Shown: one piece after another, positions 1,506-54,403 of the stretch
Layout: every line of letters begins with the position of its first letter
Position numbering within the stretch: position 1 is the stretch's first letter
Origin: an uncultured Verrucomicrobiae bacterium
Lineage (GTDB): Bacteria; Verrucomicrobiota; Verrucomicrobiia; Palsa-1439
Assembly: GCA_963812605.1 (NCBI GenBank)
Contig: CAWEWF010000011.1
Location: forward strand, 9,708-73,707
Length of the DNA stretch: 64,000 bases
Reading direction: 5' to 3'
Notes under the pieces: generated by a model
What the model saw: only the letters and a program-made list of their open reading frames with translations
What the model was told of the DNA's origin: nothing
The model's database searches: none
Position numbers and translations under genes: made by a program

Positions 1506-1572
1506 ATCCGCCTCTGATCCCCTCTCCCCACCGGGGGAGAGGGTTGGGGTGAGGGGGAACATAAAAATATGA
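1498..1572 (+). CDS. Repeat-containing bridging mini-ORF (24 aa)
   Basis: ATG overlaps the capsid stop (ATGTGTAA); TGA overlaps the next start (ATGA); reads through a REP-like hairpin. Confidence 0.45.
   Translation: MCKSASDPLSPPGERVGVRGNIKI
1519..1557. repeat. REP-like element CCCTCTCCCC..GGGGAGAGGG-TT(G/A)GGGTGAGGGG
   Basis: Further copies at 2161-2196 and 4240-4275. Confidence 0.85.
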
Positions 1573-7912: not shown

Positions 7913-8022
7913 GAGGCTCACCCTCCATCCGCTGTAGCCGCGTCCCGATTCCGAGATCGGGACGCGCGCCGCGTTGGTGTAGCCACGGCTCTGTGAGCCG
8001 TGAGGGCCAGGATCGCCAATGA
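7909..8022 (+). CDS. Repeat-containing bridging mini-ORF (37 aa)
   Basis: ATGA overlaps at both ends; reads through two GTAGCC hairpins at about 7934-7966 and 7979-8002. Confidence 0.45.
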   Translation: MRGSPSIRCSRVPIPRSGRAPRWCSHGSVSREGQDRQ

Positions 8023-13218: not shown

Positions 13219-13310
13219 TCACATTTTCCGATGGTAGCGCGACCGTCCCGTTTGCGGTCGTTATGACCAGGGCAAGCGGGACGCTCGCCCTACGAGGCAG
13301 AACATCATGA
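13215..13310 (+). CDS. Repeat-containing bridging mini-ORF (31 aa)
   Basis: ATGA overlaps at both ends; contains the 60-bp REP doublet. Confidence 0.45.
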   Translation: MITFSDGSATVPFAVVMTRASGTLALRGRTS

Positions 13311-37182: not shown

Positions 37183-38616
37183 ATGATTAAGAATCTTGCC
37201 CCGAAGTTGACCGACGCGGAGTACGAGAAGAATTTTGCCGACATCAATCCGCCGTTCGCGCCCCACAACTCGAAGATCGAGGCCAACCGCTGCCTGTACT
37301 GCTTCGACGCGCCGTGCACGCGCGCCTGTCCGACGCATATCGACATTCCCGCGTTCATCAAGAAGATCGCCACGGGCAACATGCGCGGCAGCGCGAAGGA
37401 AATTCTCGATGCCAACATTCTCGGCATGAGCTGCGGGCGGATTTGTCCCGTTGATTCGCTGTGCGAAGGCGCGTGCGTCTACAACGAGCGCGACACCGAG
37501 GCGATTGAGATCGGCCGGCTCCAGCGTTACTCGATCGATTGGTTTTACGAGAACTGGGACAAGACGAAGCAGATGTTCAAGGCGGGCAAGTCCAACGGGA
37601 AAAAAGTCGCCTGCATCGGCGGCGGACCCGCGAGCCTTTCCGCGGCCTTTTACCTCGCGCAACTCGGCTATGCGGTCACGATTTACGACAAGAACGACAA
37701 GCCCGGCGGCCTGAATACGTACGGCATCGCGCGCTACAAGATGTCCGCCGAAGAAGCGCTCAAGGAAGTGAAGCTCGTCGAGCACGTCGGCGTGAAATTC
37801 AAACAGAAATGCGAAGTCGGCAAGGACGTGGCCATCGACAAGCTCACGAAGGACAACGACGCCATTTTCGTCGGCGTCGGCCTCGGGCAGACCGAAGACC
37901 TCGGGATTCCCGGCGAAGATTTACCCGGCGTGGTGGACGCCATCACGTTCATTGACGAACTCAAGCACAACAAGCTGCGCGATGTGCGGGTCGGCCGCCG
38001 CGTCGCGGTCATTGGCGCGGGAAATACTTCCGTGGACGCCGCCACGCAGTCGAAGCGGCTCGGCGCGGAGATGGTCATGGTGCTGTACCGCCGCACGGAA
38101 GCGGAGATGCCCGCGTACGATTACGAGTACGAGATCGCCAAGAAGGACGGCTGCGTTTACTACTTCCTCACGGCGCCGAAACGCATCGTCGGCAAAGGCG
38201 CCGTCGAAGGCATTGAATGCGTCCGCATGAAACTCGGCAAGCCCGACGCGTCGGGACGGCCGTCGCCCGAGCCGATTGCCGGGAGCGAATTCGTCCTCGA
38301 ATGCGACATGGTGATCAAGTCGCTCGGGCAGAAGAAGCAGGGTGAGTTTGCCCAGAAAGTGCTCGGCTTGAAAACCGACAATCGCGGCCGCATTACGGTT
38401 GACGAAATCACCATGCAGACCAGCAATCCGAAATTTTACGCGGGTGGCGATTGCGTCAATGGCGGCCGCGAAGTGGTCAACGCCGTGGCGCACGGCAAAC
38501 GCGCCGCGTGGGCGATCCACAAAAAACTGTCGGGCGAGGACATCGACCTGGATGGTTTGTGGAAAAATGAAACCATCCGCCGCAACGCGAATACGGCTGA
38601 GCACCAGTATGCGTGA
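37183..38616 (+). CDS. preT: Dihydropyrimidine dehydrogenase subunit PreT
   Basis: 'RCLYCFDAPC..ACP' and 'CGRICP..LCE'; FAD/NADPH motifs; adjacent to preA. Confidence 0.9.
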   Translation: MIKNLAPKLTDAEYEKNFADINPPFAPHNSKIEANRCLYCFDAPCTRACPTHIDIPAFIKKIATGNMRGSAKEILDANILGMSCGRICPVDSLCEGACVYNERDTEAIEIGRLQRYSIDWFYENWDKTKQMFKAGKSNGKKVACIGGGPASLSAAFYLAQLGYAVTIYDKNDKPGGLNTYGIARYKMSAEEALKEVKLVEHVGVKFKQKCEVGKDVAIDKLTKDNDAIFVGVGLGQTEDLGIPGEDLPGVVDAITFIDELKHNKLRDVRVGRRVAVIGAGNTSVDAATQSKRLGAEMVMVLYRRTEAEMPAYDYEYEIAKKDGCVYYFLTAPKRIVGKGAVEGIECVRMKLGKPDASGRPSPEPIAGSEFVLECDMVIKSLGQKKQGEFAQKVLGLKTDNRGRITVDEITMQTSNPKFYAGGDCVNGGREVVNAVAHGKRAAWAIHKKLSGEDIDLDGLWKNETIRRNANTAEHQYA

Positions 38617-38619
38617 ATG

Positions 38620-38755
38620 GCGAAAATCCGAATTTCGAAATATGAAACAAGCTCGAATGTTAGAAATCCCAAATACCACGGCGACTGCGAGACAACTCTT
38701 TGAAATTCGATTTTCGAATTTGATTCGTGCTTCGGTTTTTGAATTTCGGATTTAG
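38620..38755. repeat. Heptamer-based inverted-repeat element (AAATCCG/AATTTCG units)
   Basis: Homologous copy at about 51007-51155. Confidence 0.8.
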
Positions 38756-38765
38756 AAAGGAAGTC

Positions 38766-40055
38766 ATGGCAGATTTAAGCATCAATTGCGGCGGCATCAA
38801 ATCACCCAACCCGTTCTGGCTCGCCAGCGCGCCGCCGACCAACAGCGGCGGCCAGATCCAGCGCGCGTTCGACCTGGGGTGGGGCGGCGCCGTGTGGAAA
38901 ACGCTCGGCGAAACCATCATCAACGTCAACTCCCGCTTCTGGTCCCTCGACTACGGCTCGACCCGCATGATGGGCCTGAACAATATCGAGCTCATCACCG
39001 CGCGTCCTTGGGACACCAACATTCGCGAGATCAAGGAAACGAAAAAGAAGTATCCCAAGAACGCCGTCATTGTCTCGATGATGATCGAATCGAAGCAAGA
39101 GGCGTGGCACAAGGCCGTCAAGGAAGTTAATGACACGGGTTGCGACGGCATCGAGTTGAATTTCGGTTGCCCGCACGGGATGAGCGAACGCGGCATGGGC
39201 AGCGCCGTCGGCCAGGTGCCCGAGTACACGAAGATGATTACCGAATGGGTGAAGGAAGTCGCCGAAGTTCCCGTGCTGGTGAAGTTGACGCCGAACATCA
39301 GCAACGTCGCCGTCGTCGGGCGCGCGGCCGCCGCCGGCAAAGCCGACGGCATTTCGTTGATCAATACCATCAACTCGATCATGGGCATCAACCTCGACAA
39401 TTTCGCGCCGTACCCGAGCGTGGACGGCAAAGGCAGCCATGGCGGTTACTGCGGCCCCGCCGTCAAGCCCATCGCGCTCAACATGGTCAGCGCGATTGCC
39501 AAGGACGCGGAGATCGGCATTCCCGTTTCGGGCATCGGCGGCATCACGACCTGGCAGGATGCCGTGGAGTTCATGGTGCTCGGCGCGACGAGCGTGCAGG
39601 TCTGCACGGCGGTGATGCATTACGGCTACCGCATCGTCGAGGACATGATCGACGGGCTCTCGAACTGGATGGATGAGAAGGGCTATAAGAAGTGCACCGA
39701 CTTCATCGGCAAGGCGCTGCCGAACATCAAGGACTGGAGCGACCTTAACCTCAATTACAAACTCGTCGCCCGCATCAATGCCGATCTCTGCATCGGCTGC
39801 GAACTCTGCCACGTCGCCGCGTGGGACGGGTCACACCAGTGCATCGACCTCGAAATGGGCAACGGCCACCGCGTGCCGGTCATCAACGATCCCGAATGCG
39901 TCGGCTGCAATCTCTGCATGCTCGTCTGTCCCGTCGACGGCTGCATTCAAATGGTCGAGGTCGAAACCGGCAAGAAGTCGATGTCCTGGCGCCAATACCA
40001 GGCGGAACTCGGAAAGAACCCGAAGTGCGAGCCGCCCGGTTACATTGAGCACTAG
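38766..40055 (+). CDS. preA: Dihydropyrimidine dehydrogenase subunit PreA
   Basis: 'NPFWLASAPP', 'NNIELI', 'ELNFGCPHGMSERGMG' and 'KLTPN'; C-terminal 4Fe-4S motifs. Confidence 0.95.
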   Translation: MADLSINCGGIKSPNPFWLASAPPTNSGGQIQRAFDLGWGGAVWKTLGETIINVNSRFWSLDYGSTRMMGLNNIELITARPWDTNIREIKETKKKYPKNAVIVSMMIESKQEAWHKAVKEVNDTGCDGIELNFGCPHGMSERGMGSAVGQVPEYTKMITEWVKEVAEVPVLVKLTPNISNVAVVGRAAAAGKADGISLINTINSIMGINLDNFAPYPSVDGKGSHGGYCGPAVKPIALNMVSAIAKDAEIGIPVSGIGGITTWQDAVEFMVLGATSVQVCTAVMHYGYRIVEDMIDGLSNWMDEKGYKKCTDFIGKALPNIKDWSDLNLNYKLVARINADLCIGCELCHVAAWDGSHQCIDLEMGNGHRVPVINDPECVGCNLCMLVCPVDGCIQMVEVETGKKSMSWRQYQAELGKNPKCEPPGYIEH

Positions 40056-40107
40056 AACTCATCATACAAATGGTGGATAGGCCGCTGTGCCTGTCAAAAC
40101 CCATCGA

Positions 40108-40132
40108 CACAGGCAGGGACGCCTGTGCCACC
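40108..40132. repeat. GGTGGC-type REP hairpin (CACAGGCAGGGACGCCTGTGCCACC)
   Basis: Identical copy at 57640-57664; intragenic relatives at 5795, 6218 and 13806. Confidence 0.85.
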
Positions 40133-40159
40133 AAAGGTTTATGAGACTACTTCCAGTGC

Positions 40160-41605
40160 TTACTCGTAGACGTAACGGTTGAAGGTGCCGCGGGCCACGG
40201 TCGAGATCTTCACTTCCTCACCCCAGGCTGTCTCGACTTTGTCGTTCGCGGGTGCGGCGAGGATGTGTTTGCCGCCGCAGTTTACGACCGCGACCGTGTA
40301 AGCACCTTCGGGACTGCCCACTTGCGGGTAGACCGTCGTGGAAACTTCCAGGACTCCCTGCGGCAGCCGGGGCTTGTGCGGCTCGTTGTTGTGCGGGAGC
40401 GGCTCGGGCTGCCAGCGGCGAAAATGATGGCGATAGCGGCGGTTGCCGACCTTGTCGAGCACCGTGACGGCGATGTTGTTGCCGGGTCCGCCGATGCTGT
40501 GGCAGATGGCGACCTTCGCTTTTTTCACCTGCAACCCGGCCGGCGCTTCCCCGCGCAGTTGCCGGCAAGCTTCGATGATTTTGATCAAGCCAGTGCCGCC
40601 CAGCGCGTGCAGGTCTTTCAGTCCACCGGAGATGTTCGTCGGGATTGCGCCATCGCGTTCCAGCGTTCCTTTCTCGATCGCCTTGAGGGCTTCCGCATGC
40701 GTGAAGATGCCCAAGTCGACGAGGTTCAGCAAAAAGAGCGGCCCGAACGCATCATGCTGTTCGATGATCAGTCCGCTCAAGTCCTGTGGATGAAGAATAC
40801 CTGCCTGCTTATAGGCTTTGCGCGCGGCCCAGCGCGTAGCTTCGAGGTGATCGATGTAGTAGCGGTCGAAAATGCGCGAGCCATCCACCGCATGCCCGAC
40901 GCCGGAAATCTCGATGTCGCTCTCCTTACTGGTGACCAGGATCGCGCCGGCGGCGTCGCTCGTGGGACAGGAATCGAACACGTGCAGCGGCGTCGCGACG
41001 GGAGGGTTCCGCACCGGGTCGCGATACTCGGCGGCCGTGATTCCCTTGCCGGAGAATTGCGCGTCCGGATTGGCCGCCGCGTAGCGATAGGCGCGAATGG
41101 CGATCTTTTCCAGCAAGGCCTTGAAGTCCGGCGACGATACCTTGTTGACCCGCGCGTATTCCAGCGAGATCAACGCGATTGCCGATGGCATGGTCAGCCC
41201 GCAAGCGCGATCGATCGGATCGACCACCTCGCCGATGATTCGCGAGCGCTCGTCGCGTAGCACGGCGCTCATCTTCTCGCCGCCGACGGCGAGCACGCGT
41301 TTGCACCGCCCGCTCGCGACGGCGTCGAACGCGCGCAATAGCGCGGTGTGGCCGTTGGAAGCGGTCTCGACGCGTTCGGCTTCCGCGCCGCGCAAACCGA
41401 GACGGTCGGCGACCTTGGTGGCGATATTGCCTTCGCCGGTGAAGGAAGAAATGTTCTGGACGGAGACGAAGACGCCGTCGATCCGGCTCGGGTCAACCTT
41501 GGAAAGAATCTTCTGGGCCGGCTCACAGAGGAGGTCAACCAGCGACAAATCCGTCTTCTTATACGCCTTGGTGCGTTCCGCCTGCTGGATATAGACCTTC
41601 ATCAT
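40160..41605 (-). CDS. Thiolase-like protein (SCP-x/archaeal type) with short C-terminal extension
   Basis: 'PLHVFDSCPTSDAAGA', 'HDAF', 'NISGGLK' and 'HSIGG'. Confidence 0.8.
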   Translation of the reverse strand: MMKVYIQQAERTKAYKKTDLSLVDLLCEPAQKILSKVDPSRIDGVFVSVQNISSFTGEGNIATKVADRLGLRGAEAERVETASNGHTALLRAFDAVASGRCKRVLAVGGEKMSAVLRDERSRIIGEVVDPIDRACGLTMPSAIALISLEYARVNKVSSPDFKALLEKIAIRAYRYAAANPDAQFSGKGITAAEYRDPVRNPPVATPLHVFDSCPTSDAAGAILVTSKESDIEISGVGHAVDGSRIFDRYYIDHLEATRWAARKAYKQAGILHPQDLSGLIIEQHDAFGPLFLLNLVDLGIFTHAEALKAIEKGTLERDGAIPTNISGGLKDLHALGGTGLIKIIEACRQLRGEAPAGLQVKKAKVAICHSIGGPGNNIAVTVLDKVGNRRYRHHFRRWQPEPLPHNNEPHKPRLPQGVLEVSTTVYPQVGSPEGAYTVAVVNCGGKHILAAPANDKVETAWGEEVKISTVARGTFNRYVYE

Positions 41606-41698
41606 CCCCCTTTCCCCAAAGCACCTCCAGTGCCGAACGTCCTCTCACTGGGCGAGATTCTACCCTCTTTTGCAAGCAGCCTGCAATAAAAAGGCTTA

Positions 41699-41926
41699 AT
41701 GATCAGCATGGAACCGATCAAAGACAAACAGAAGACGCTCGCTGTCGCGGAAACCAAGGAAGTCCGGCGACTGTGCCGCGAAGCGGGTGTGTTGGTCGGC
41801 GCCGGCGGCACCTTCGCCAACGTCATCCGCCTCCAGCCACCCCTGACGCTGACCGCCGCCGAAGCCGACCGGGTTTGCGACGTGGTTAGCGATGCGGTGA
41901 GCAAGGTGGCTGGCGCGATGGAGTAG
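41699..41926 (+). pseudogene. C-terminal fragment of a class III aminotransferase
   Basis: 'CREAGVLVGAGGTFANVIRLQPPL' with no N-terminal part. Confidence 0.7.
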
Positions 41927-41949
41927 GACGCCGGTAGTAGCGACGGAAT

Positions 41950-42447
41950 ATGGATAACGCTCTATCCAACGACCAAATCCGAGCATGGATTGACGATCTT
42001 GTTGCCAAACTTGGCATTAAGGAACAATGCGATTGGAAGGAGTACGACTCACTCCTACAACGTGGAAAAACTAAGGAATGCGTCGAGGGCATCGCATCGT
42101 ATCTGGGGCTGCCCATCGCGATTGATTTCGCATACGTAGCGAACAACCCAAAGACTGGCGACAAAAACCGGTTCGAGAGCGACGGCTTGGTGAAAACCGA
42201 CTGGAGAGGTCGTGGAGTCGATGGCATCACAGCACAGGTGTCGATACCGGAACGGCTGCCTTTATACGGCAGTTCAAGCCTTAAGAATTATCCAATCCGA
42301 GTAAGGGTCAGCAAGAACTGCGGTCAAAATCCCGATTCGTTCATTGCAGTGATGGCGCACGAGCTATCTCACATAGTGCTAGCTTCACTTTACCACCCAG
42401 AAAAGGATAACTACATTAGCGTGCGAGCTTCGCGGTTCATCTCGTAG
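41950..42447 (+). CDS. Hypothetical HExxH protein, likely truncated
   Basis: 'MAHELSH' near the end; low GC; overlaps a convergent gene. Confidence 0.55.
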   Translation: MDNALSNDQIRAWIDDLVAKLGIKEQCDWKEYDSLLQRGKTKECVEGIASYLGLPIAIDFAYVANNPKTGDKNRFESDGLVKTDWRGRGVDGITAQVSIPERLPLYGSSSLKNYPIRVRVSKNCGQNPDSFIAVMAHELSHIVLASLYHPEKDNYISVRASRFIS

Positions 42448-43084
42448 CATGTCCTCACGTATTCCGCCGGAACCGGGACGAGATTCCTTTGTGAAGTCTC
42501 CGCCACAAAGAGGAAGTTGATAGCTGGGCCTCGCGTCCCAATCATTAGCTTCCCGAGACGAACCCAAGCTGGCCAAAGAAGATTCCCCATCACCGCGCGG
42601 CGCAATGCGTTGACGCATATGTGAGGACAATATCTCGAATGTGACAATCAACGAGTTCACCCATCAGGAAGAACTGTATGTAAAGTTGCGGCGATAAGTT
42701 TGCCAGTTGCCTGCTGACGTTGTGTAACTGATTGATCATACTTGGCTGGTGTTTTTCAGTCAGGTGCGCGAGCAACTGTTCTGCCTGTAGTCGCCGGTGT
42801 GTTATTACTTCAGATTCGGAAACACAGCCGAGGTCGGTTGGGCAAACGTGGAATACTGCGCCTAGTTGCTCCAACAGCTCGATAAACTCCATGATCTGAC
42901 TTTCGCCAAGCCTACCCCCCTTGACTTCCTTCCTGCCGTATCCCCACTTGTGCTTCAGTGCGATAAAGCGCTGCTCAAAATCAGAATGAAGTTCTTCCGC
43001 AATGGTCAGAGCACCGACGCAGCTAATACTGTGTTGGCCAAGTTGAGGAACAAAGACTCCGGATTCGTCGATATAAACAACCAT
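42385..43084 (-). CDS. DUF3800-like protein; frameshift near 42640
   Basis: N-terminal 'VYIDESG' and 'EVKG'. Confidence 0.65.
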
Positions 43085-43328
43085 GCAGAATTCCCCATTA
43101 CGCGGAGTATGCCAACGCATTCCGGCAGGGACAAGCCTGACGATATTTCAGCCGGTAAGACAAGCAGGCCGGGCGGGCGAGAGTTTTATGGCGTTACCGG
43201 AGAGGAAAGAATCGTAAACGACAGAGATCCTTCGACAAGCTCAGGATGACAACCGGGGGAGAAGGCAACGTTACCGGGCGGCGGCTGGGCCAGCCGTCCT
43301 TACCAACGACCTCGGCGATCTTTGCGTC

Positions 43329-44643
43329 TCAGCTCTTCTCGATAATCGTAAAGACCTCATCCAGCGTCTTGATGATGAAATCGCTGTCGGCATTCGTGAT
43401 GCAGAAGCGGGGGTTTGATGCGGATGGTGTTGGCGGCCATGCCGCCGCGACCGATGAGCAGACCCCGGTCTTTGCACAATTCCATCGCGCGCTGGACGTG
43501 TTGCGGCGCGACTTCCTTCGATTCCTTGTCCTTCACGATCTCCAGGCCGCGCATGAGACCCTTGCCGCGATGTTCGCCGACGATCTTGTGGTCGCGAACC
43601 AGCTTGTCGAAGCCGGCGGCCAGACGGTCACCCTGGACCTTGGCGTTGTGCATATAATTGTTGCGCTCGATGCATTCGACGACCGCGAGACCAGCGGCCA
43701 TCGAGACGGGATTGCCGCCGTAGGTATTGAAGTGGACCTTCTCGCGCATGGACTCGGCGATTTCCTTCGTGCAGGTCACGCCGCCGAGCGGGATGCCATT
43801 GCCCATGCCCTTGGCCATCGTGATCATGTCGGGCTTCACGCCCCATTGCTCGATGCCCCACCATTTGTCACCCGTGCGCCCGAAGCCCGTCTGTACTTCA
43901 TCGGAGATGAACACGCCGCCGTATTTCTTCACGATGTCGTAGGTGATTTCGAAATATTCCTTCGGCGGATCGATCACGCCGCCAAATCCCTGGATCGGTT
44001 CCGCGATGAACGCGGCGATCTTGCCGGACGTGTTGTACTTGATGACGTCCTCGAGTTCGCGCGCGCAAGCGACGTTGCAGGAGGGATACTTCAGGCCGAA
44101 CGGGCAGCGGTAACAGTAGCCCGGCGAAATGTGGGTGACCCCAAAGACGTACGGCAAGGAGTGCCGCCATTTCGACTGGCCCGTCATCGTCATCGCCATC
44201 AGCGTGCGCCCGTGGAAACTGTGGCGCAGGGCGATGAATTCCGTTTGCTTGGTGTAATTCTTCGCGAGCAGCGCGGCCAGTTCGTTCGCCTCGCAGCCGC
44301 TGTTCGTGAAGAAGCTGACCTTCAATCCGCCGGGCATGACCGTCGCCAGTTTTTCGGCGTAGCGGACCAAATTCGGGTGATAATACAATGTGGTCATGTG
44401 CTGCAGATTTTTCATCTGCTCGATGGTCGGGTTGGTCACTTCGGGATGGCAATGGCCGACGCTGATCGTGACCACCGCGGAAAATCCGTCGAGATACTTG
44501 TTGCCCTTGTCGTCATAGACGAACTGCATGTCGCCCTTCACGATGTTCATCGGAAAATACTTCATCGTGCTGGGCAGGATGTACTCGTCGCGCATCTGCC
44601 CGATCTGGTCGGGCGTCAAAGTTTCGGTTGGTTTCATGTGCAT
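43329..44643 (-). CDS. Class III aminotransferase (beta-alanine/beta-aminoisobutyrate transaminase candidate); frameshift near 43410
   Basis: 'FIAEPIQG', 'DEVQTGFGRTG' and 'MAKGMGNG'; pyrimidine catabolism context. Confidence 0.9.
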
Positions 44644-44802
44644 GGGGATTACCTCATAATCAAGATTTAGGTATTGCTACGAGCATACACCGCAAGCCTA
44701 TTTTTTTACCAGAGATTTTTCTCCGGGCGCTGCAAGTCATCGTTTACGGCTGAAATTGCCTAACCAGTTGACGTCGCCGCCAAGATTGGAGATACTACAA
44801 AC

Positions 44803-44985
44803 ATGAGCGGGCCCAGCGTGAAGCGTGAATTGAAAAGCATCGCGGCGCAACTGCCTGATTCGGCTACGTATTCCGACGCGATGTATGAGCTTTACGTGCG
44901 AATGAAGATCGCGGCCGGTCGAAAGGCCGCCACTGAAGGGCGTATCATCTCGCATGCTGCCGTGAAACGCCGCTTTGCCAAGTGA
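44803..44985 (+). CDS. Antitoxin
   Basis: 'QLPDSATYSDAMYELYV..KI..G....EGRIISH'; overlaps the toxin gene. Confidence 0.75.
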   Translation: MSGPSVKRELKSIAAQLPDSATYSDAMYELYVRMKIAAGRKAATEGRIISHAAVKRRFAK

Positions 44986-45272
44986 TGAAGGTCGTCTGGA
45001 CCGCTCCGGCCGTTTCTGATTTGGACGCAATTCGTGGCTACATCGCCCGTGACTCCAAAGTTTACTCCGACACGATGGTGGTGGAGATCTTCGAAGCGGT
45101 GGATCGTCTGATGAAATTTCCCCGGTCAGGCCGCATCGTGCCCGAAGAGAGCGACCCCAACACCCGCGAAGTAATCGTGGGTAACTATCGTGTGATCTAT
45201 GAGATCAGCGGCGCGACAGTGCGCATATTGACAGTTCTTCACAGCGCCCGGCTCTACCGGAAACCGTCCTGA
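44982..45272 (+). CDS. RelE/ParE-family toxin
   Basis: 'VVWT..A..DL..I..YIA', 'FPRSGRIVPE' and 'YRVIY'. Confidence 0.9.
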   Translation: MMKVVWTAPAVSDLDAIRGYIARDSKVYSDTMVVEIFEAVDRLMKFPRSGRIVPEESDPNTREVIVGNYRVIYEISGATVRILTVLHSARLYRKPS

Positions 45273-45388
45273 CCGCTTGCGCGAAGCCGGTGGCTGCGGC
45301 GACGTGGCCCATCTCAGCGAACCACATCTTCGCCATGCCCAGAAAGCACTCTTTGTCGCAGGGAGTTGACGTGTATAGCGCAATTTGG

Positions 45389-45724
45389 TTAGAGCACCAT
45401 CGAATAATTGTCGATGTATTTGTCTATATCTTGTCGCCCCAAATAGCACTTTCCAGCGCGTTCAAAAACGTTGAATTGGTCCTGCCCGCCGGACGATTTG
45501 CTGAGTAAATTTCGGTGCGTGTCAATGAAGCTTCTTGGGAGACAGACTGCCTTTATGTTGTCGTCGTCATATCCACACAGCAGCACAGCGCCTTGGAACT
45601 CTCCCTCAGGCAAGCCGAGCCACCATTTCCGTCCATCCGCCATTTTCCTTCCGGTACTATACGTGATCCCTACGCGCTCTCCTTTACTGTTTTGGTAAAT
45701 CGTCCCGCGAATGTGAGTCAACAT
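45389..45724 (-). CDS. Hypothetical protein
   Basis: 111 aa low-GC ORF with GGAGG RBS downstream of the NCS1 gene. Confidence 0.5.
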   Translation of the reverse strand: MLTHIRGTIYQNSKGERVGITYSTGRKMADGRKWWLGLPEGEFQGAVLLCGYDDDNIKAVCLPRSFIDTHRNLLSKSSGGQDQFNVFERAGKCYLGRQDIDKYIDNYSMVL

Positions 45725-45754
45725 CCCTCCGTGGTCAGCGAGCTTCCCGGCAGT

Positions 45755-47281
45755 TCACACCGCTGCTTGCGGCTTGCGCACGAGGGTCATCCAGGCCCAG
45801 TACACAACGAATGAAATGGAGAAGCCGACGAACCACGCGTAGCTGTACAGGTGCATCAGGAATGGCCCGACGGTTGCAGGGTCCACCAGCTTGATGGTGC
45901 CGAGGAAGCCGGGCACATTCGGGGCGATCCCGAGCACCAGTGCCACGATGGCCGCGGGGTTGAATCCGCTGCCGTAAAAATACCGGCCGTCGCGCAAATA
46001 AAGTTGAACCGGATTCAACCGCGTCTGCCGGATCACGAAGTAGTCGCAGATCAGAATCCCGCCGATGGGCCCGAGCAGGGCCGAGTAACCAACCAGCCAC
46101 GTGAAGATGTAACCGCTCGGGTCGGCCACCAGTTTCCATGGTTGGATCAGGATGCCGATGATGCCGGTGATCAGACCGCCGATGCGGAAAGTGATCCTGG
46201 ACGGCCAGAGGTTCGAAAAGTCATTGGCCGGGCTGACAACATTTGCGGCGAGATTGGTGGCCAGCGTCGCGAGGCACAAGGCAAACAACGAAATACCGAG
46301 CACGGCTGGGCTCTTGAATTTGGTAATGAGCACCACGGGATCCCAGATCGCGGAACCATAGATCACGATCGTCGCGGACGTTACGGCCACACCGATGAAC
46401 GAGTACAACGCCATGGTGGTTGGCAAACCAACCGCCTGGCCGATGACCTGATCACGTTGCGTGCGCGAGTAGCGGGTAAAGTCGGGGATGTTCAGGGAAA
46501 GCGTGGCCCAATAACCGATCATGCCGGTCAGTGCCGGGAAAAATATCAGCCAGAATTGCCCCGCTTTCGGGCCGCCCGGCACAAAGGCCGACGGTTGCGA
46601 GAGCATCGGCCCGAAACCGTTGGCGGCGCGATAGGCCCAGGCGAGCAGGGCCAACCCGAGGAGGATAAGCAGCGGCGCTTTAATATCGAGGAGGATGCGG
46701 ATCGACTCGATACCCTTGTAAATGACGAGCATGTTGATCCCCCAGAAAAACATGAAGCAGGCAAACTGCGCGATGTTGATGCCGCCCCACCAGCTCGGCA
46801 GGGAATTCCACGCGGGCACGTAGATGGTAATGATCTTGTAAATCGCCCAACCGCCAATCCACGTCTGGATGCCGAACCAGCCGCAGGCGACAAACGCGCG
46901 CAACAGCGCGGGGATGTTCGCGCCGCGAATGCCGAAGGATGCGCGGCAATAAACGGGGAAGGGGATGCCGTATTTCGTGCCGGCATGCGCGTTGAGAATC
47001 ATCGGCACCAGCACGATGGCGTTGCCAAAGAAAATCGTAAACACGGCCTGATACCAATTCATGCCCTCGGAGATCAGCGATGAGGCGAGCATGTAGGTCG
47101 GGATGCAGGCCGACATGGAAATCCACAACGCCGCGATGTCTTTCATGCCCCACTTGCGGTCTTTCACCAGCGTCGGGGCGATGTCCTCGTTCCAGTACGG
47201 CGAATGCGAGATATTGTCCGTGACCTCGTGGATGCCGTTGGTAACGCGGACGCCTTCGAGTTCCTGGATGGGCACGTTCAT
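45755..47281 (-). CDS. NCS1 nucleobase:cation symporter
   Basis: Multi-TM; 'GTKYGIPFPV', 'CGWFGIQ' and 'WATLSLNIPDFTRY'. Confidence 0.92.
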   Translation of the reverse strand: MNVPIQELEGVRVTNGIHEVTDNISHSPYWNEDIAPTLVKDRKWGMKDIAALWISMSACIPTYMLASSLISEGMNWYQAVFTIFFGNAIVLVPMILNAHAGTKYGIPFPVYCRASFGIRGANIPALLRAFVACGWFGIQTWIGGWAIYKIITIYVPAWNSLPSWWGGINIAQFACFMFFWGINMLVIYKGIESIRILLDIKAPLLILLGLALLAWAYRAANGFGPMLSQPSAFVPGGPKAGQFWLIFFPALTGMIGYWATLSLNIPDFTRYSRTQRDQVIGQAVGLPTTMALYSFIGVAVTSATIVIYGSAIWDPVVLITKFKSPAVLGISLFALCLATLATNLAANVVSPANDFSNLWPSRITFRIGGLITGIIGILIQPWKLVADPSGYIFTWLVGYSALLGPIGGILICDYFVIRQTRLNPVQLYLRDGRYFYGSGFNPAAIVALVLGIAPNVPGFLGTIKLVDPATVGPFLMHLYSYAWFVGFSISFVVYWAWMTLVRKPQAAV

Positions 47282-47285
47282 CGGG

Positions 47286-48161
47286 CTACGGGAGCAATTC
47301 GGACATTTCCTTGTAGGTCTCAGGACGGCGGTCGCGATAAAACTGCCAGACGTTGCGCACTTCGCGGATCACGTCGAGGTTCAGGTCGGCGACGATGATG
47401 GCGTCCTTTTCGCGCGGGCCTTCGGCGATGATTTTGCCGCGCGGATTGGCGAAATAGCTTTGCCCGTAAAATTCGCCGAAGTCCCAGGGCTTCTCCGTCC
47501 CGACGCGATTGATCGCGCCCACGTAAAAGATATTCGCCACCGCCGCCGCGGGTTGTTCGAGTTTCCACAAGTATTCGCTCAAGCCCGCCACCGTGGCGCT
47601 GGGATTGAAAACGATCTCGGCGCCGTTGAGGCCGAGCAGCCGCCAGCCTTCGGGGAAATGGCGGTCGTAACAAATATAAACGCCAATCTTGCCGACCGCC
47701 GTCTCGAACACAGGATAGCCGAGGTTGCCGGGCTTGAAATAAAACTTCTCCCAGAAGCCGGGCTGGCAGTGGGGGATGTGGTTCTTGCGATACTTGCCGA
47801 GATATTTGCCATCGGCATCGATAACCGCCGCCGTGTTGTAGTACGTGCCGGTGGCTTCCTCTTCGTACACGGGAACGATGAGCACCATCCCGTGTTTCTT
47901 TGCCAGCCGCTGCATCAACTTGATGGTCGGACCGTCCGGCACGCGCTCGGTTGACTCGTACCACTTGATCTCCTGTTCGCAACAGAAATACGGGCCGTAA
48001 AAAATCTCCTGCATGCAGAGCACTTGCACGCCCTTTTTCGCCGCCTGCTCGATCAGCTTCACGTGCTTCTCGATCATCGCCTGCTTGATCTTCTTGACGG
48101 ACGACGCGCCTGACTCCGGGTTGGTCGCTTGAATCAGTCCGCCGCGTACGATGCGTGCCAT
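47286..48161 (-). CDS. Beta-ureidopropionase (nitrilase family)
   Basis: E-K-C triad in 'QEIF', 'YRKNHIP' and 'ICYDRHFPE'. Confidence 0.9.
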   Translation of the reverse strand: MARIVRGGLIQATNPESGASSVKKIKQAMIEKHVKLIEQAAKKGVQVLCMQEIFYGPYFCCEQEIKWYESTERVPDGPTIKLMQRLAKKHGMVLIVPVYEEEATGTYYNTAAVIDADGKYLGKYRKNHIPHCQPGFWEKFYFKPGNLGYPVFETAVGKIGVYICYDRHFPEGWRLLGLNGAEIVFNPSATVAGLSEYLWKLEQPAAAVANIFYVGAINRVGTEKPWDFGEFYGQSYFANPRGKIIAEGPREKDAIIVADLNLDVIREVRNVWQFYRDRRPETYKEMSELLP

Positions 48162-48173
48162 GTTGCGCTCTCC

Positions 48174-49709
48174 TCAATAAATGTTTGTTTGACGCTTTAC
48201 CCCCGTGTAGTCGTAGAACACGGTCTTCAGTTGCGTGAAGAAATTCAGCCCTTCATCGCTCATTTCGCGGCTGCCGTAGCCGGTCGCCTTGAATCCGCCG
48301 AACGGCAATTGTGCTTCGCCGCCAACGGTCGGCGAGTTGATGTGTACCATGCCGGCTTCGATCCGGTCCGTGAACCGCATCACAAGATTTGCGTCGCCGG
48401 TGTAAATCGCACAGGTCAGGCCGAACTGCACGTTATTGGCGACGGCCATGGCTTCCTCGAAATCGCCCACGCGAAAGACGGCCAGCACCGGGCCGAAGAC
48501 TTCCTCCTGCGCCAGCGTGTGCTCGGGCTTCACGTTGTCGAACACGGTCGGCGCTACGAAATAGCCCTTCCCGAGTTTTCCGTCGGTAAGCGCGTTACCG
48601 CCGATCAAGCACTTGTTGCCCTCTTTTTTGGCGATCTCGATATACCGCAGGTCGGTTTCGTACTGCGCCTTGTCAACTGCCGGGCCCATGTGGACGCCGT
48701 CTTCCGTGCCGTCACCCACCTTGATCTTCTTGACGCGCTCGATCAGTTTTTCGAGAAACTTGTCCGCAATCGCCTTGTGCAGAACCAGGCGGCTGGTCGC
48801 GGTGCAGCGCTGACCGGTCGAACCGAAAGCGCCTTGCGCGCAGCCTTCGACGGCGAGGTCGATATCGGCGTCGTCCATCACCACCAACGGGTTTTTGCCG
48901 CCCATTTCGCATGTGACCTTTGCCAAATGCGCGGCGGCCTGCTTGGCGACCTGTCCGCCGGTTTCACAGGAACCGGTAAACGAGACCGCGCGAACGGTCT
49001 TGTTGTTCACGAACTCATCGCCGACGGTGCCGCCGCCGCCGTAGACGAGATTCAGCGCGCCTTTGGGCAGGCCGGCATCTTCATAAATTTTTGCGAGCAA
49101 TTCCGCGCAGCCGGGGGTATTGCTCGCGGCCTTGAAGACCACCGTATTGCCGGCGACCAGCGCGGGCGCCGTTTTCCACACGGGAATGCAGAAAGGAAAA
49201 TTCCAGGGCGTGACGCAGCTCACCACGCCGAGCGGCTGGCGAATCGTGTACACGAACGTGCTGGGCACCTCGCTCGGCGAGGTCCGACCCTCGATGCGAA
49301 AGGACTGGCCCGCATAATACTCGAGCAGGTTGATGCCTTTCTGGACTTCGCCGCGCGATTCGCTGAGGGTCTTGCCTTCCTCGCGCGTCATCGTGCGGGC
49401 GATTTCCTCTTTGCGCTCGTAAGTAAGTTGCACGGCCCTGGCGAGGATGCGACCGCGGGCGGGCGCGGGCGTATTGCGCCATGCTGGAAACGCGGCCTGG
49501 GCGGCGGCGATGCCTGCCTGCGCTTCTTCGCGGGTCGACTGCGGCGCGTGGCCGATGATGTCGTCGGTGTTGGCGGGATTGATGTTGGGTGTGGACTTAC
49601 CCGAGGACGAATCCACCCACTGTCCGTTGATGAAATTCTTGTAGCGGCGCGACTCAGCGGCGGGTTTTGCGGCGCTTTGCGGTTTGTCGGCGAGTGCTTG
49701 TGGCGGCAT
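48174..49709 (-). CDS. Aldehyde dehydrogenase (KGSADH-like, probably non-acylating)
   Basis: 'TPWNFP', 'FTGS', 'EMGGKNP', 'GQRCTA' and 'EEVFGP'. Confidence 0.9.
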
Positions 49710-50613
49710 GTTTGGAACTCCTCTTCTGGCTCCCTAAAATCTCGTTTGTCAGTTTCTCAACCGCGTCGTGCGGGTCAAGTTTTCTCTTGGCGACATCGGT
49801 CAGAACGGTTTGCGCCCGTGGCCCTTCTAGCGCACGAAGTATAGTGGCCGTCAGGCGCGATTGCAATAGTCGAGTCACCTCCGCGCGCACGGCCCGCGCG
49901 CGCCTTTTTGCCAATTCACCCGAATGCACAAGATAGGCGTGGTGGACGTCCATCGCCCCGCAAAGGGTTGGGATGCCTTCGCCGCTCTTGGCCGACGTGT
50001 GAATCGTTGGACGCTCCCATTTGATCGCGCTGTATCGGGGGCCGGCTGCGGGGGCGCGGGCATTGAACAAATCCACCTTGTTAACCACCAAAATGTCCGC
50101 GATCTCCATCAAACCGGACTTCGCCCGCTGGATCTCATCGCCCAATTCGGGCATGAGCACCACGACGACCGTGTCCGCAACTTCCGCAACTTCCACTTCA
50201 TCCTGCCCCGTGCCCACTGTTTCCACGATCACGATGTCGAACCCCGCGGCGTCCAGCGCATGGATGATCTGCGGTGTCGAATCGGTCACCCCGCCGTGAT
50301 GGTGGCGCGTCGCCAGGCTGCGGATGAACACCCCCTCGTCCTCGCTGTGCCGTTGCATTCGCAGCCGGTCCCCCAGCAGCGCGCCGCCCGAGATCGGACT
50401 CGTCGGATCGATCGCAATCACGCCGACGGTCTTGTGTTGGCGGCGCAAATTGTCGATGAGCCGGTCGATCAGCGAACTTTTCCCCACGCCGGGCGGTCCG
50501 GTGACGCCGAGAATGCGCGCCTTGCCCGTGCGCCGGTAAAGTTCCGTCGGCAACGGCTCGCCGCTATCGAGGCGGGTGATCAACTTGGTGAGTTCTTTGC
50601 CGTGCATGATCAT
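49654..50613 (-). CDS. meaB: Methylmalonyl-CoA mutase-associated GTPase
   Basis: 'GPPGVGKS', 'DPTSPISGGALLGDRLRM', 'ETVGTGQDE' and 'NKVD'. Confidence 0.92.
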   Translation of the reverse strand: MIMHGKELTKLITRLDSGEPLPTELYRRTGKARILGVTGPPGVGKSSLIDRLIDNLRRQHKTVGVIAIDPTSPISGGALLGDRLRMQRHSEDEGVFIRSLATRHHHGGVTDSTPQIIHALDAAGFDIVIVETVGTGQDEVEVAEVADTVVVVLMPELGDEIQRAKSGLMEIADILVVNKVDLFNARAPAAGPRYSAIKWERPTIHTSAKSGEGIPTLCGAMDVHHAYLVHSGELAKRRARAVRAEVTRLLQSRLTATILRALEGPRAQTVLTDVAKRKLDPHDAVEKLTNEILGSQKRSSKHAATSTRRQTAKRRKTRR

Positions 50614-51002
50614 CGCCGGCTGCTCTGGATGAACTCCACGATGCTGCCAATGGAACTGCCCGGGCCGAAGACTTCCTTGATGCCCAGCTTCTTCAATTTT
50701 TTCACGTCATCGTCGGGAATGATGCCGCCGGCAAATACCAACAGGCCCTTGACCTTTTCTTTTTTCAGCAATTCCATCACGCGCTTGAACTGCGCCATGT
50801 GGCCGCCCGAAAGCGAACTCAAGCCGATGACGTCCACATCTTCCTGTAGCGCGGCGGCGACGATCTGCTCGGGTGTGTTGCGAATGCCAGTGTACACGAC
50901 TTCCATCCCCGCATCGCGCAGCCCCATGGCCACGACGAGCGCGCCGCGCTCATGGCCATCAAGACCCGCTTTGGCAATCAAAACTTTAATGGGTCGGTTC
51001 AT
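50610..51002 (-). CDS. Cobalamin-binding subunit of acyl-CoA mutase
   Basis: 'GLDGHERG' and 'GGIIP' motifs. Confidence 0.92.
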   Translation of the reverse strand: MNRPIKVLIAKAGLDGHERGALVVAMGLRDAGMEVVYTGIRNTPEQIVAAALQEDVDVIGLSSLSGGHMAQFKRVMELLKKEKVKGLLVFAGGIIPDDDVKKLKKLGIKEVFGPGSSIGSIVEFIQSSRR

Positions 51003-51156
51003 AGTGGAAAATCCGAATTTCGAAATCCGAAACAAACTCGAATGACCGAAATCGGAAAACTCAAAAGGGGGCCGCCGGAACGATTTCCGCAATTGCATTC
51101 TTCGAATTTCGGATTTGTTTCGTGCTTCGAATTTCGGGATTCGGATTTGAGATTTG

Positions 51157-52665
51157 TCATATTGAATGATTTGCCCGATATTCGCCGAATGTTGCCCGCA
51201 ACACTTTGCAGATTTCGCCGACCGTGATGTAGTTGCGCACGCAGTCTACGACGATCGGCATCAGGTTTTCCGAACCCTTTGCTGCTTTTTCGAGGGTTGC
51301 GAGGCATTTGCCGACTTTGGCGGCGTTGCGTTTCTTGCGCAGCGCGGCCAGGTCGCGACGGCGGCGCGGCTCCAATTGCGGATCGATCTTTTGCCTTTGA
51401 ATCTTCAGCACCTTGTCGCTGACGCATTCGTTGACGCCGACAATGATCTTCTCTTTGCGCTCGACGGCCTTCTGGTGTTCGTACGCGGCGTGATAGATTT
51501 CCTTGTAAACGTAGCCACTCTCGATGGCCTTGAGCATCCCGCCCATGTTGTCGATTTTATTCAGGTATTCGCGGGCCTCTTGGGCGAGTTGGTCGGTGAG
51601 CGATTCGATATAAGGACTGCCGCCGAGCGGGTCGGGTTCGGTCGTCACGCCCGACTCGTAGGCGATGATTTGTTGGGTGCGCAACGCGAGCAATGCGGAT
51701 TCCTCGGTCGGCAGGGCAATCGCTTCGTCCTTGGCGTTGGTGTGCAGGCTTTGCGTGCCGCCGAGCACAGCCGCGAGCGCTTCGAGGGTGGTGCGGACGA
51801 CATTGTTGTCGGGTTGCTGGGCAGTGAGCGTCGAGCCGGCGGTTTGCGTGTGGAAACGCAACATCATCGAGCGTTCATGCTTTGCGCCAAAGCGGTCGCG
51901 CATGATGTGCGCCCAGAGCCGGCGCGCCGCGCGGAACTTCGCGATCTCCTCGAAGAAATTACTGTGGCAGTTGAAGAAAAATGCAAGACGTGGGGCGAAG
52001 TCGTCGACGTTCAGGCCACGCTCGACACAGGTCTGCACATAGGTGATGCCGTCGGCCAGCGTGAAGGCGATTTCCTGGGCGGCGGTGCAGCCGGCTTCAC
52101 GCATGTGATAGCCGCCGACGCTGATGGTGTTCCAGCCCGGCACTTCCTTTGCGCAGAATTCCACAATGTCGGCAATCAGGCGCAGGGAAGGTTTTGGCGG
52201 AAAAATGTAGGTGCCGCGCGCGATGTATTCCTTGAGAATGTCATTTTGTACAGTGCCCGAAACTTTGGCCCACGGGACGCGTTGCTTCTCGGCGACAGCG
52301 AGGTAGAGCGCCAACAAGATGCCAGCGGTCGCATTGATTGTCATCGACGTGCTGACCTTGTCGAGCGGGATGCCGGTGAAAACCTGTTCCATGTCCGCCA
52401 GTGACGAGATTGCGACGCCGACGCGACCGACTTCGCCAAGGGCCATCGCATCGTCGCTGTCGTACCCGATCTGCGTCGGCAAATCGAACGCCATCGAAAG
52501 ACCGGTCTGGCCCTGCCCGAGCAGATAGCGGTACCGCTGATTCGTTTCCTTTGCGGTGCCGAAGCCCGCATACTGGCGCATCGTCCAGAGCTTCCCGCGA
52601 TACATCGAAGCGTGGATCCCGCGCGTGAAGGGGAATTTGCCGGGTTGTTCGAGTGGCTCAGTCAT
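51157..52665 (-). CDS. Methylmalonyl-CoA mutase, large subunit
   Basis: '[16 protein letters not shown]', 'QNDILKEY' and 'HTQT'. Confidence 0.92.
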
Positions 52666-53062
52666 GCGGCTCGCAAAGTTCGACAAGCACGCCGTGGGCG
52701 GACTTTGGGTGGAGGAAGGCGATCTTGGCGCCACCGGCGCCGGTGCGTGGCTGTTCGTCGATGAGGCTGACGTTGGCGCTTTTCAGATTCTTCAGTTGCT
52801 CGGCGAGGTGGTCGGTTTGAAGGGTCAGGTGATGCAAACCTTCGCCGCGTTTATCGAGGAATTTCTGGATGGGGCTGTCGGGCGAGGTGGGTTCGAGCAA
52901 TTCAATGGTACTTTCGCCTGACTTCAGGATCGCAACGCGGACTTTCTGCTCGGGCACTTCCTCGATGTGCGAGAGTTTCAGGCCGAGCGCATCGACCCAG
53001 AATTTTTTGGCCTCGTCGATGCTCTTGACTGCGATGCCGATGTGGTCGATGCCGTTAATCAT
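52658..53062 (-). CDS. mce: Methylmalonyl-CoA epimerase
   Basis: 'DHIGIAV', 'IELLEP', 'GEGLHH' and '[14 protein letters not shown]'. Confidence 0.92.
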
Positions 53063-53182
53063 AAGACACCGTGTTTATATGGTAGCTGCGGCTGGAGAGG
53101 CAAAGCGGTGACGAGTCACCGCACTCCAAAAAGGAACGACAGAGATGCCTCGACAGGCTCGGCATGACAAGGATTTGCTGGA

Positions 53183-54403
53183 TCATACTGCGCCTGCCTT
53201 TTTCAAACCGGCGATGTCGTCATCTTTGTAGCCGAGATCGCGCAGAACTTCCGTCGTGTGCTGCCCGAGCAACGGCGGTGCGTCACCCGCGTCGCCGGGG
53301 GTCGCGGACAACTTCACGGGCACGCCGGTCATCTTCACCGACTTGAGTTTTGCGTGCGGACGCTCGACGACCATGTCGCGAGCGCGCACCTGCGGGTGCT
53401 CGAGCACTTCGGAGACGGAATAGATGGGGCCGCAGGGGATGCCGTTCTTTTCCAGCAACGCGAGCCATTCCTCGGCGGTCTTCTGCGCAAAAATCTTTTC
53501 CAGCACGGGGTACAACTCGGTATGATTCTCGACGCGCTTCGGATTGGTGGCGAATTTCTCGTGCGTCTTCAAGTCCGGCCGTCCGATGGCCTCGCAAAAC
53601 TGTTGCCAGAGACGGTCGTTGCCGGCGGCGAGGTTGAACCAGCGGTCGCTGGCCTTGAAGGTCTCGTAGGGCACGATGGTGGGATGCTGGTTTCCTTTGC
53701 GCGTCGGCGATTTGCCGGTGCCGAAATAAATACCGGCTTGATAGGTGAGGAACGAGACCTGTCCATCGAGCAGCGACACATCGACTTTTTGTCCGCGGCC
53801 CGTGCGCTGGCGGACCTGCAAGGCGAGGAGGATGCCGAGTGTCGCGTAGAGGCCGGCGGTGATGTCGGCCAGCGACGTGCCCGTTTTGAAGGGCGGACCG
53901 TTTGGTTCGCCCGTGAGGCTCATGATGCCACCTTGTCCCTGGATCGAGAGATCGTAGCCGGGGCGATCAGCCCAGGGACCGGTATGACCATAACCAGTGA
54001 CCGAGGCATAAATAATTTTCGGATTGAGTTTCACGACTTCGTCATAGCCGAAGCCGATGCTCGGCAGGAAGTCGCGGCGAAAATTTTCCACCAACACATC
54101 CGACTGTTGGATGAGCTTCTTCAGGATTTCGCGGGCCTCGGGTGTCTTGAGATTGAGCGTCAGGGATTTCTTGCCGCGATTGATGCTGAGGAAGTAGACG
54201 CTTTCGCCTTCGAGGAACGGCGGGCCGTAGGCGCGCGTGTCGTCACCCTTGTCGGGATTTTCTACTTTGATAATTTCCGCGCCGAAATCGCTCAAGAGCA
54301 TCGAGCAATAGGGCCCCGCCAAAATGCGCGAGAGATCCACAACCCGGATACCATCGAGAGGCTTCACATTGTCAAGGCTAACGATGCACGCTTGTTCTCG
54401 CAA
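53183..54403 (-). CDS. CoA transferase, family III (CaiB/BaiF)
   Basis: 'PLDGIRVVDLSRILAGP', 'NRGKKS', 'ENFR' and 'PGYD'. Confidence 0.92.
   Translation of the reverse strand: MREQACIVSLDNVKPLDGIRVVDLSRILAGPYCSMLLSDFGAEIIKVENPDKGDDTRAYGPPFLEGESVYFLSINRGKKSLTLNLKTPEAREILKKLIQQSDVLVENFRRDFLPSIGFGYDEVVKLNPKIIYASVTGYGHTGPWADRPGYDLSIQGQGGIMSLTGEPNGPPFKTGTSLADITAGLYATLGILLALQVRQRTGRGQKVDVSLLDGQVSFLTYQAGIYFGTGKSPTRKGNQHPTIVPYETFKASDRWFNLAAGNDRLWQQFCEAIGRPDLKTHEKFATNPKRVENHTELYPVLEKIFAQKTAEEWLALLEKNGIPCGPIYSVSEVLEHPQVRARDMVVERPHAKLKSVKMTGVPVKLSATPGDAGDAPPLLGQHTTEVLRDLGYKDDDIAGLKKAGAV

Follow-up and report, generated by a model that had tools for sequence, protein, structure and literature searches.

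A 64,000-nucleotide (nt) stretch of the genome of an uncultured Verrucomicrobiae bacterium (assembly GCA_963812605.1, contig CAWEWF010000011.1, positions 9,708 to 73,707; hereafter the window) contains three gaps between metabolic genes in each of which a small open reading frame (ORF) runs across repeated DNA, from the end of the upstream gene to the start of the downstream gene or close to it. These mini-ORFs, denoted A, B, and C, lie in the gap between preT and preA, between two subunit genes of methylmalonyl-CoA mutase, and between a CoA-transferase gene and an epimerase-type gene, and each gap is flanked by same-strand genes of one pathway (Table 1). The names given to these genes in a preliminary description, which was made from the sequence alone, are upheld by Pfam matches, and the gene for the MeaB chaperone of the mutase was also identified by Pfam. 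The closest named match of the B12-binding subunit is in a metagenome-assembled genome of the Limisphaerales (Verrucomicrobiota), with 83% identity.

Table 1. Mini-ORFs, repeat elements, and flanking genes at junctions A, B, and C (positions in the window)
Feature	Position	Strand	Remarks
Mini-ORF A	38609..38755	+	48 amino acids; preT/preA gap
Mini-ORF B	50999..51160	-	53 amino acids; mutase/B12 gap; exact relay, ATGA at both ends
Mini-ORF C	53055..53186	-	43 amino acids; CoA-transferase/epimerase gap
Element in gap A, resembling a miniature inverted-repeat transposable element (MITE)	38624..38753		Inverted terminal arms 38624-38649 and 38728-38753
Insert at junction B	51004..51156		153 nt; same element family as gap A
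Insert at junction C	53064..53181		118 nt; two other repeat families, similar to repetitive extragenic palindromes (REP-like)
preT-like gene (dihydropyrimidine dehydrogenase small subunit type)	37183..38616	+	Pfam Fer4_20 1.3e-36, Pyr_redox_2 5.8e-33
preA-like gene	38766..40055	+	Pfam DHO_dh 1.6e-38, Fer4_21 1.2e-15
Methylmalonyl-CoA mutase large subunit	51157..52734	-	Pfam MM_CoA_mutase 2.7e-220
Mutase B12-binding subunit	50610..51002	-	Pfam B12-binding 5.4e-26; start agrees with that in relatives
Family III CoA-transferase	53183..54403	-	Pfam CoA_transf_3 1.2e-139
Glyoxalase-fold protein, methylmalonyl-CoA epimerase type	52658..53062	-	Pfam Glyoxalase_4 1.3e-26

All three mini-ORFs are present where they had been placed, and the overlaps reported for their ends are correct; the claim that they share one relay architecture holds exactly for ORF B, whereas ORF A ends short of its downstream gene and ORF C stops inside its own. 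The ATG of ORF B overlaps the mutase large subunit gene's stop codon, and its TGA shares bases with the B12-binding subunit gene's ATG at 51002-51000, both as ATGA (start -3 and stop +3 in the coordinates of the survey described below). ORF C also begins on an ATGA, at the CoA-transferase stop, and its TAA (53057-53055) ends 5 nt past the epimerase ATG at 53062-53060 (ATGATTAA), placing it in a different phase from ORF B (start -3, stop +7, class 2). The ATG of ORF A lies within ATGCGTGA, 7 nt ahead of the last base of the preT stop codon (TGA, 38614-38616), and its TAG at 38753-38755 is separated by 10 nt from the preA ATG, which begins at 38766; preA retains its own Shine-Dalgarno-like AAAGGAAG motif, 5 nt upstream of the ATG. 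Four of the six frames of gap B are free of stop codons, as is one of six in gap A and one of six in gap C, and an open frame by itself is weak evidence. The codon scores of the three ORFs range from -0.23 to -0.33 per codon, with ORF A at -0.33.

Each mini-ORF crosses repeats, as had been claimed, with ORFs A and B traversing one element family and ORF C two others, whose repeats match eight other intergenic loci of the genome. The A and B elements are approximately 130-153 nt long with inverted terminal arms of 26-30 nt that are 77-85% complementary (26 nt and 77% in gap A), and they contain no transposase gene and no ORFs other than the mini-ORFs themselves; in size and arms they resemble MITEs. 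Comparison with empty sites also reveals target-site duplications, of TATGA at junction B and TATGAT at junction C, and of 4-6 nt at further junctions. On the minus strand the TATGA copies that flank insert B are at 51161-51157 and 51003-50999, and the TATGAT copies that flank insert C are at 53187-53182 and 53063-53058. A 16-mer of the A/B element occurs nine times in the window where 0.77 occurrences are expected, and only about six loci of the genome hold the family, which has many partial matches in relatives (for example those we designate G019, G022, and G025) and copies at other junctions in the relative G012. The A and B elements are co-oriented on the window although their operons are on opposite strands, and thus they are opposite relative to transcription. 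Gaps A and B each hold a single inverted-arm element, with no head-to-tail tandem units, and no internal repeat was found within gap C. In the RNA of gap B a single long hairpin forms (-51.4 kcal/mol, z-score -2.24), ending about 10 nt before the B12-binding subunit start, and gap C has a z-score of -2.26; the fold of gap A is no more stable than those of shuffled sequences (z-score -0.29).

The origin of the mini-ORFs becomes clear when each junction is set against its counterparts in 17-18 genomes from the same genus and family. No insert is present at junction B in 14 of 18 relatives, and the junctions displayed are direct ATGA overlaps. Junction C is a direct ATGA overlap in 15 of 17 relatives, and one other, G017, carries a different insert. 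At junction A, 12 of 17 relatives have a short spacer of 13-27 nt with a GGAG-type motif, four have other repeats at the same place, and the gap A element is common only to the window genome and G004, with about 91% identity. Direct overlaps in orthologous operons, which the preliminary description had suggested looking for, are thus found at B and C, but junction A mostly has short spacers instead. The flanking genes are intact, with ends and starts exactly as in the relatives.

The closest relatives have neither insert B nor insert C, which are therefore recent. We conclude that small mobile repeats, inserted recently into gene junctions, very probably gave rise to the mini-ORFs as by-products. 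At B and C the ancestral junction is a 4-nt ATGA stop/start overlap that was duplicated by the insertion, and because of this duplication ORFs B and C begin with the ATG at which the downstream gene used to start, and ORF B ends with the TGA that used to stop the mutase gene. The presence of ATGA at both ends follows from the fact that an insertion into a 4-nt overlap spares both genes only by duplicating the overlap. That the mini-ORFs' start and stop codons are a duplicated ancestral junction is a point missed in the preliminary description. ORF A probably arose as an open frame by chance, the junction having its own ribosome-binding motif and no need of a relay.

The mutase/B12 junction is a hot spot for mobile DNA of unrelated kinds. 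Its occupant in four relatives, G009 (L012:1114-1482), G024 (L008), G008 (L017), and G013 (L018), is another insert, of about 410-520 nt, in which inverted CAGGAG-rich arms enclose a gene for a 23S_rRNA_IVP (four-helix-bundle) protein (Pfam 2e-35); upstream of it the ATGA is retained. For G008 and G013, the reading frame of the orphan ATG is that of the 23S_rRNA_IVP gene, which ends 18-21 nt before the start of the B12-binding subunit gene. A contig from one soil sequencing run (X1, of the study described below) matches the 3' end of the mutase gene at window position 51173 and continues into sequence resembling the CAGGAG-type insert that G009 and G013 carry; the same soil probably contains a strain with such an insert.

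We surveyed the whole genome for similar arrangements using a purpose-written gene caller that combines codon log-odds with a start choice containing a ribosome-binding-site term, with a limit of 50 codons (3706 genes). The survey covered co-directional gaps of 60-300 nt, and a gap was taken as repeat-bearing if it matches at least two other intergenic regions. Modelled on the three window examples, the definition of a bridging ORF allowed an ATG starting at -10 to +6 nt, counted from the final base of the upstream stop codon, and a stop ending at -15 to +10 nt, counted from the first base of the start codon downstream. Among 118 repeat-bearing gaps, 17 have a bridging ORF, compared with 5 on the antisense strand and 6.6 +/- 2.0 when gap interiors are shuffled (maximum 11 in 50 shuffles); among 690 gaps without repeats the corresponding numbers are 25, 18, and 11.2 +/- 2.8. 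All 17 bridging ORFs in repeat gaps have negative codon scores (-0.17 to -0.74 per codon), and at least nine gaps besides B show the exact ATGA-type relay geometry. Four of the 17 are in the Mu-like prophage part of the window, three are gaps A, B, and C, and ten are on other contigs; the architecture is not a phage peculiarity, as the preliminary description had proposed.

The four prophage gaps (window 1506-1568, 2046-2205, 7913-8018, and 13219-13306) lie between Mu-like prophage genes, one of which has a Phage_Mu_Gp36 Pfam match (1569-2045); most of the neighboring genes have no Pfam match. In the gaps without repeats, some of the bridging ORFs are real small genes that the caller missed through its 50-codon limit. 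One 61-amino acid ORF with ATGA overlaps at both ends and no repeat (C4:69841-70018, on another contig) encodes what we take to be a HicA-type toxin. Another ORF, of 60 amino acids and scoring positively for codon use, spans the gap between two called genes at C10:173622-173814; our impression is that it resembles the C terminus of a GyrB-type protein, and it may be a detached piece of a split or frameshifted gene.

Most of the further bridging gaps that could be traced have the same history as junctions B and C. Eight further bridging gaps were searched in five relatives, and seven are informative (L152 is not; L160 has no usable empty site). Five of the seven have insertions into ATGA, GTGA, or TGATG overlaps, two have insertions into short spacers, and here too both ends of the insert carry a copy of the junction motif. 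At one locus, L159 (C9:14141-14278), the downstream copy of the start codon is ACG after the insertion where relatives have ATG, and the gene seemingly starts at a GTG two codons upstream.

We also compared the counts with a null in which all sequences are kept and only the start-codon phase is randomised. An ATG near the upstream stop is present in 29 of the 118 repeat gaps, and 17 of these bridge where 7.0 are expected, a number reached in none of 100,000 simulations; outside the window's contig there are 10 where 4.0 are expected (p about 6e-5). Where the ATG overlaps the stop codon, 14 of 21 repeat gaps bridge (5.67 expected), including 9 of 16 outside the window's contig (3.67 expected), compared with 12 of 104 non-repeat gaps (11.67 expected). 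The ATG phases in repeat gaps are distributed 20/6/7, with the 20 in the phase that reads the TGA of the downstream ATGA, whereas those in non-repeat gaps outside the window's contig are even (61/63/55). The antisense strand of the repeat gaps yields 5 bridging ORFs against 2.67 expected, with uniform phases (25/22/23). A further control, deletion of 1 or 2 nt inside the gap, gave expectations of 3.2 and 4.2 and was dropped as too harsh, since it mixes frames within an element.

The same excess was sought in relatives. In 0.8 Mb of G012 there are four bridging gaps where 1.67 are expected (p 0.025), and G012 combined with G005, after exclusion of one locus seen beforehand, gives six where 3.0 are expected (p 0.008). 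Four other small inserts are present in relatives at bridging junctions (two in G012 and two in G017, one of the latter being at junction C), and in all four the ORF ends on a TGA overlapping the downstream start; two of the inserts are of a different repeat family. One insertion is common to the window genome and G012 and bridges in both despite a 4-nt difference in length, the ORF ending 2 nt before the start codon in one genome and on an ATGA in the other. These recurrent cases support a role in coupling without proving it. The shared insertion is at locus L161 (C3:117782-118018), where the downstream start is conserved and a 62-nt repeat immediately precedes its ATGA overlap; the last codons of the upstream gene differ from those of relatives by a 1-nt shift, and the called start is about 170 nt too far downstream.

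At B and C, insertion of a repeat duplicated the overlap, leaving the upstream gene with its stop codon and the downstream gene with its start codon, and the orphaned old start codon, still behind its old upstream context, opens a frame into a stop-poor repeat. At junction B, ribosomes ending on the mutase TGA could restart on the overlapping orphan ATG, as before the insertion, melt the hairpin during translation of the 53 codons, terminate on the TGA that overlaps the B12-binding subunit ATG, and restart there, such that coupling survives the insertion. The peptide itself would be meaningless. Insertions in other phases would release ribosomes inside the repeat, or have them run across the downstream start out of frame, and would be lost more often, which could account for a phase bias at overlap junctions even though most repeat gaps have no such ORF. 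At junction C, the stop 5 nt past the start codon may still allow restart.

We regard it as rather probable that the mini-ORFs are by-products of insertion and that insertions in coupling-compatible phases have been tolerated preferentially. A role of the bridging ORFs in coupling we put at even or slightly better, and the stronger proposal, that translational coupling sieves insertions such that those in overlaps persist mainly if the junction is duplicated and the orphan start falls in the bridging phase, is tentative and falls somewhat short of even. The preliminary description had presented the architecture as a genome-wide way of accommodating repeats in coupled operons, and had named beforehand the finding that would count against this, namely that most other repeat gaps in operons lack such ORFs; this is what the survey of repeat gaps found. 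Its idea is thus partly supported, in that it would hold for a minority outcome similar to that of MIRUs, the interspersed repetitive units of mycobacteria discussed below, through a filter on coupling and not as a general rule.

A number of observations weigh against a role in coupling. The bridging ORF is missing from 101 of the 118 repeat-bearing gaps (86%), and the geometry is thus present in 14% only. ORF A is broken in G004, where it stops after three codons (ATG CGT GAA TAA). In 1.6 Mb of G005 there are three bridging gaps where 1.67 are expected, which is not significant, and the phases are 4/4/1. The recurrent cases were sought only at junctions that already bridge in the window genome, and events within one genus are not fully independent. 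Reciprocal mapping of gaps between the window genome and G005 or G012, which was meant to provide an unbiased set of insertions, recovered only 5, 1, 5, and 0 events; those mapped in G005 and G012 are in short spacers and not in overlaps, and none has a bridging ORF. Gene boundaries come from the purpose-written caller, with at least one start in error by 170 nt and one by 9 nt. Finally, no RNA run was found among the sequencing runs searched.

Two further observations on the same side concern the frames and the ribosome-binding sites. Open frames are not in excess in the sense direction (0.67 per gap, compared with 0.81 in antisense), and the signal therefore lies in the phase of the leftover start codon and not in a general shortage of stop codons. 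A Shine-Dalgarno-like score of at least 2 is found for 59% of the genes downstream of relay gaps, compared with 29% for other repeat gaps, a surplus that may come from the GGAG-rich arms that end several of the repeats. Since Shine-Dalgarno-like motifs are not scarce, no missing ribosome-binding site has to be made good by the relay, and we rejected the idea that it acts as such a substitute.

These points are for the most part what would be expected if the ORFs were neutral, that is, if repeats land where they are tolerated and contain accidental open frames of no effect, with the enrichment due to age, ascertainment, and gene-calling error. The stop-poor nature of the repeats, evident in the open frames of gap B, is in keeping with this, as is the recency of inserts B and C, which leaves little time for selection, together with the loss of ORF A in G004, the many repeat gaps without such ORFs, the lack of a clear excess in G005, the sense frames that are no more open than antisense ones, and the Shine-Dalgarno-like motifs downstream. 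However, age and composition do not explain why the phases are biased in repeat gaps and even in gaps without repeats, nor the excess of bridging where the ATG overlaps the stop, which persists outside the contig on which the mini-ORFs were discovered. The bridging of all four of the other inserts at the same junctions, and of the shared insertion in both genomes in spite of its change in length, also argues against neutrality, and we consider it the most serious alternative, although an unlikely one.

It is much less probable that the repeats act as RNA structures of the operons (stabilising hairpins, processing sites, or attenuators, in the manner of REP and enterobacterial repetitive intergenic consensus (ERIC) elements) and that the ORFs are irrelevant. 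The folds of gaps B and C are consistent with such a role, and REP-like palindromic units are present in most of the bridging gaps of the genome; but gap A folds like its shuffles, an Rfam scan of the whole window at the gathering threshold gave no match, and the elements are missing from the operons of most relatives. A role in RNA structure also does not predict the bias in start-codon phase, although it is compatible with tolerated coupling phases and not opposed to them. The genome also contains four Y1_Tnp matches (PF01797, IS200/RAYT-type; C1:452666-452992, C9:94844-95173, C14:62215-62541, and C6:71491-71718) above the Pfam cut-off, which are candidate mobilisers of the REP-like palindromes.

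That the mini-ORFs encode repeat-borne small proteins with a function of their own is less probable still. Their ATG codons are placed where translation could begin, and 43-53 amino acids is within the range of known small proteins, but negative codon scores in all 17 cases, the absence of ORFs B and C from all close relatives, and the break of ORF A in G004 argue against it, as do the opposite orientation of one element family relative to transcription in gaps A and B and the unrelated peptides that different repeat families would specify.

Errors of assembly or polishing are the least likely explanation of all: the genome is a metagenome assembly, about 90% complete, and independent soil reads were not shown to bridge the gaps, but element A is at the same place in G004, further junctions in G012 and many relatives carry its family, G012 also has one of the insertions, and the flanking genes are intact with the boundaries found in relatives. 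The soil reads are from three DNA runs of one study, which contain 12-42% of the sampled sequence words and yield short, low-depth contigs, none of which was shown to bridge gap A, B, or C. In all three runs, contigs join window position 41488 to 43580 with 24 other letters between; related soil strains seem to be without these approximately 2.1 kilobases, in most of which the gene caller found no gene.

Duplication of the host junction by an insertion accounts for the oddly regular mini-ORFs with ATGA at both ends that are called as hypothetical proteins in repeat-rich genomes. A real phase bias would be population-genetic evidence of selection on coupling strong enough to filter insertions of mobile elements, and the MIRU idea (1997) would then extend to unrelated palindromic repeat families in the Verrucomicrobiota. 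If such a sieve is general, across unrelated repeat families and beyond mycobacteria, the presence and phase of such ORFs would reveal coupling-dependent operon junctions directly from genome sequences, by a test that is cheap and applicable to all of them; if it is wrong, the ORFs are annotation noise.

Small palindromic mobile repeats that are tolerated in transcription units are well known, and include REP elements and the bacterial interspersed mosaic elements (BIMEs) related to them, ERIC, and Correia-type repeats, and Rickettsia palindromic elements insert in frame-compatible fashion into genes. All of these are described as acting via RNA structure or protein insertion and not through separate bridging ORFs; one case on contig C3 of the genome described here is in-frame-like. 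A search of the literature on MITE or REP elements combined with translational coupling found nothing relevant.

Short ORFs that deliver ribosomes to a following gene have been described in two other settings. In bicistronic designs, according to a 2025 review of translational coupling (PMC12548453), a short leader ORF ending on a start codon removes the effect of local RNA structure; these are engineered, whereas the arrangement here arises by insertion and is at most filtered by selection. In integrons, a review (PMC8876359) describes ORF-11, ORF-17, and ORF-18 of attI and short ORFs of attC, from which termination and reinitiation bring ribosomes to the next gene, with the short ORFs within attC relieving the stem-loop barriers between cassettes. 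The likeness lies in short non-functional peptides and in a bridged element that, at junction B, is a long hairpin; there is no integron context here, and the integron ORFs have a tested ribosome-binding site of their own and experiments behind them where ours are known by sequence.

The closest parallel is with the MIRUs, mobile repeats that insert at start codons and contain an internal ORF coupled with -4 nt spacing (PMC12548453, attributing this to Supply et al. 1997), a geometry that the same review reads as permitting repeat insertion 'with minimal impact on expression'. Both systems consist of short mobile repeats between co-directional genes of operons, and the geometry of an ORF overlapping its neighbors at both ends is matched exactly by ORF B, with ORFs A and C overlapping upstream only. 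The likeness described here is one of architecture. MIRUs are head-to-tail units, whereas the repeats here belong to several unrelated families with palindromic sequences or inverted arms; the codons that begin and end the ORFs here come from a duplicated host junction and not from the repeat; the phylum is the Verrucomicrobiota; and the geometry is confined to the minority of repeat-bearing gaps given above. The principle is thus already known from MIRUs, and what is new is its setting in the Verrucomicrobiota, its occurrence with several unrelated palindromic families, the use of duplicated host signals, and a phase bias that is quantitative and controlled.

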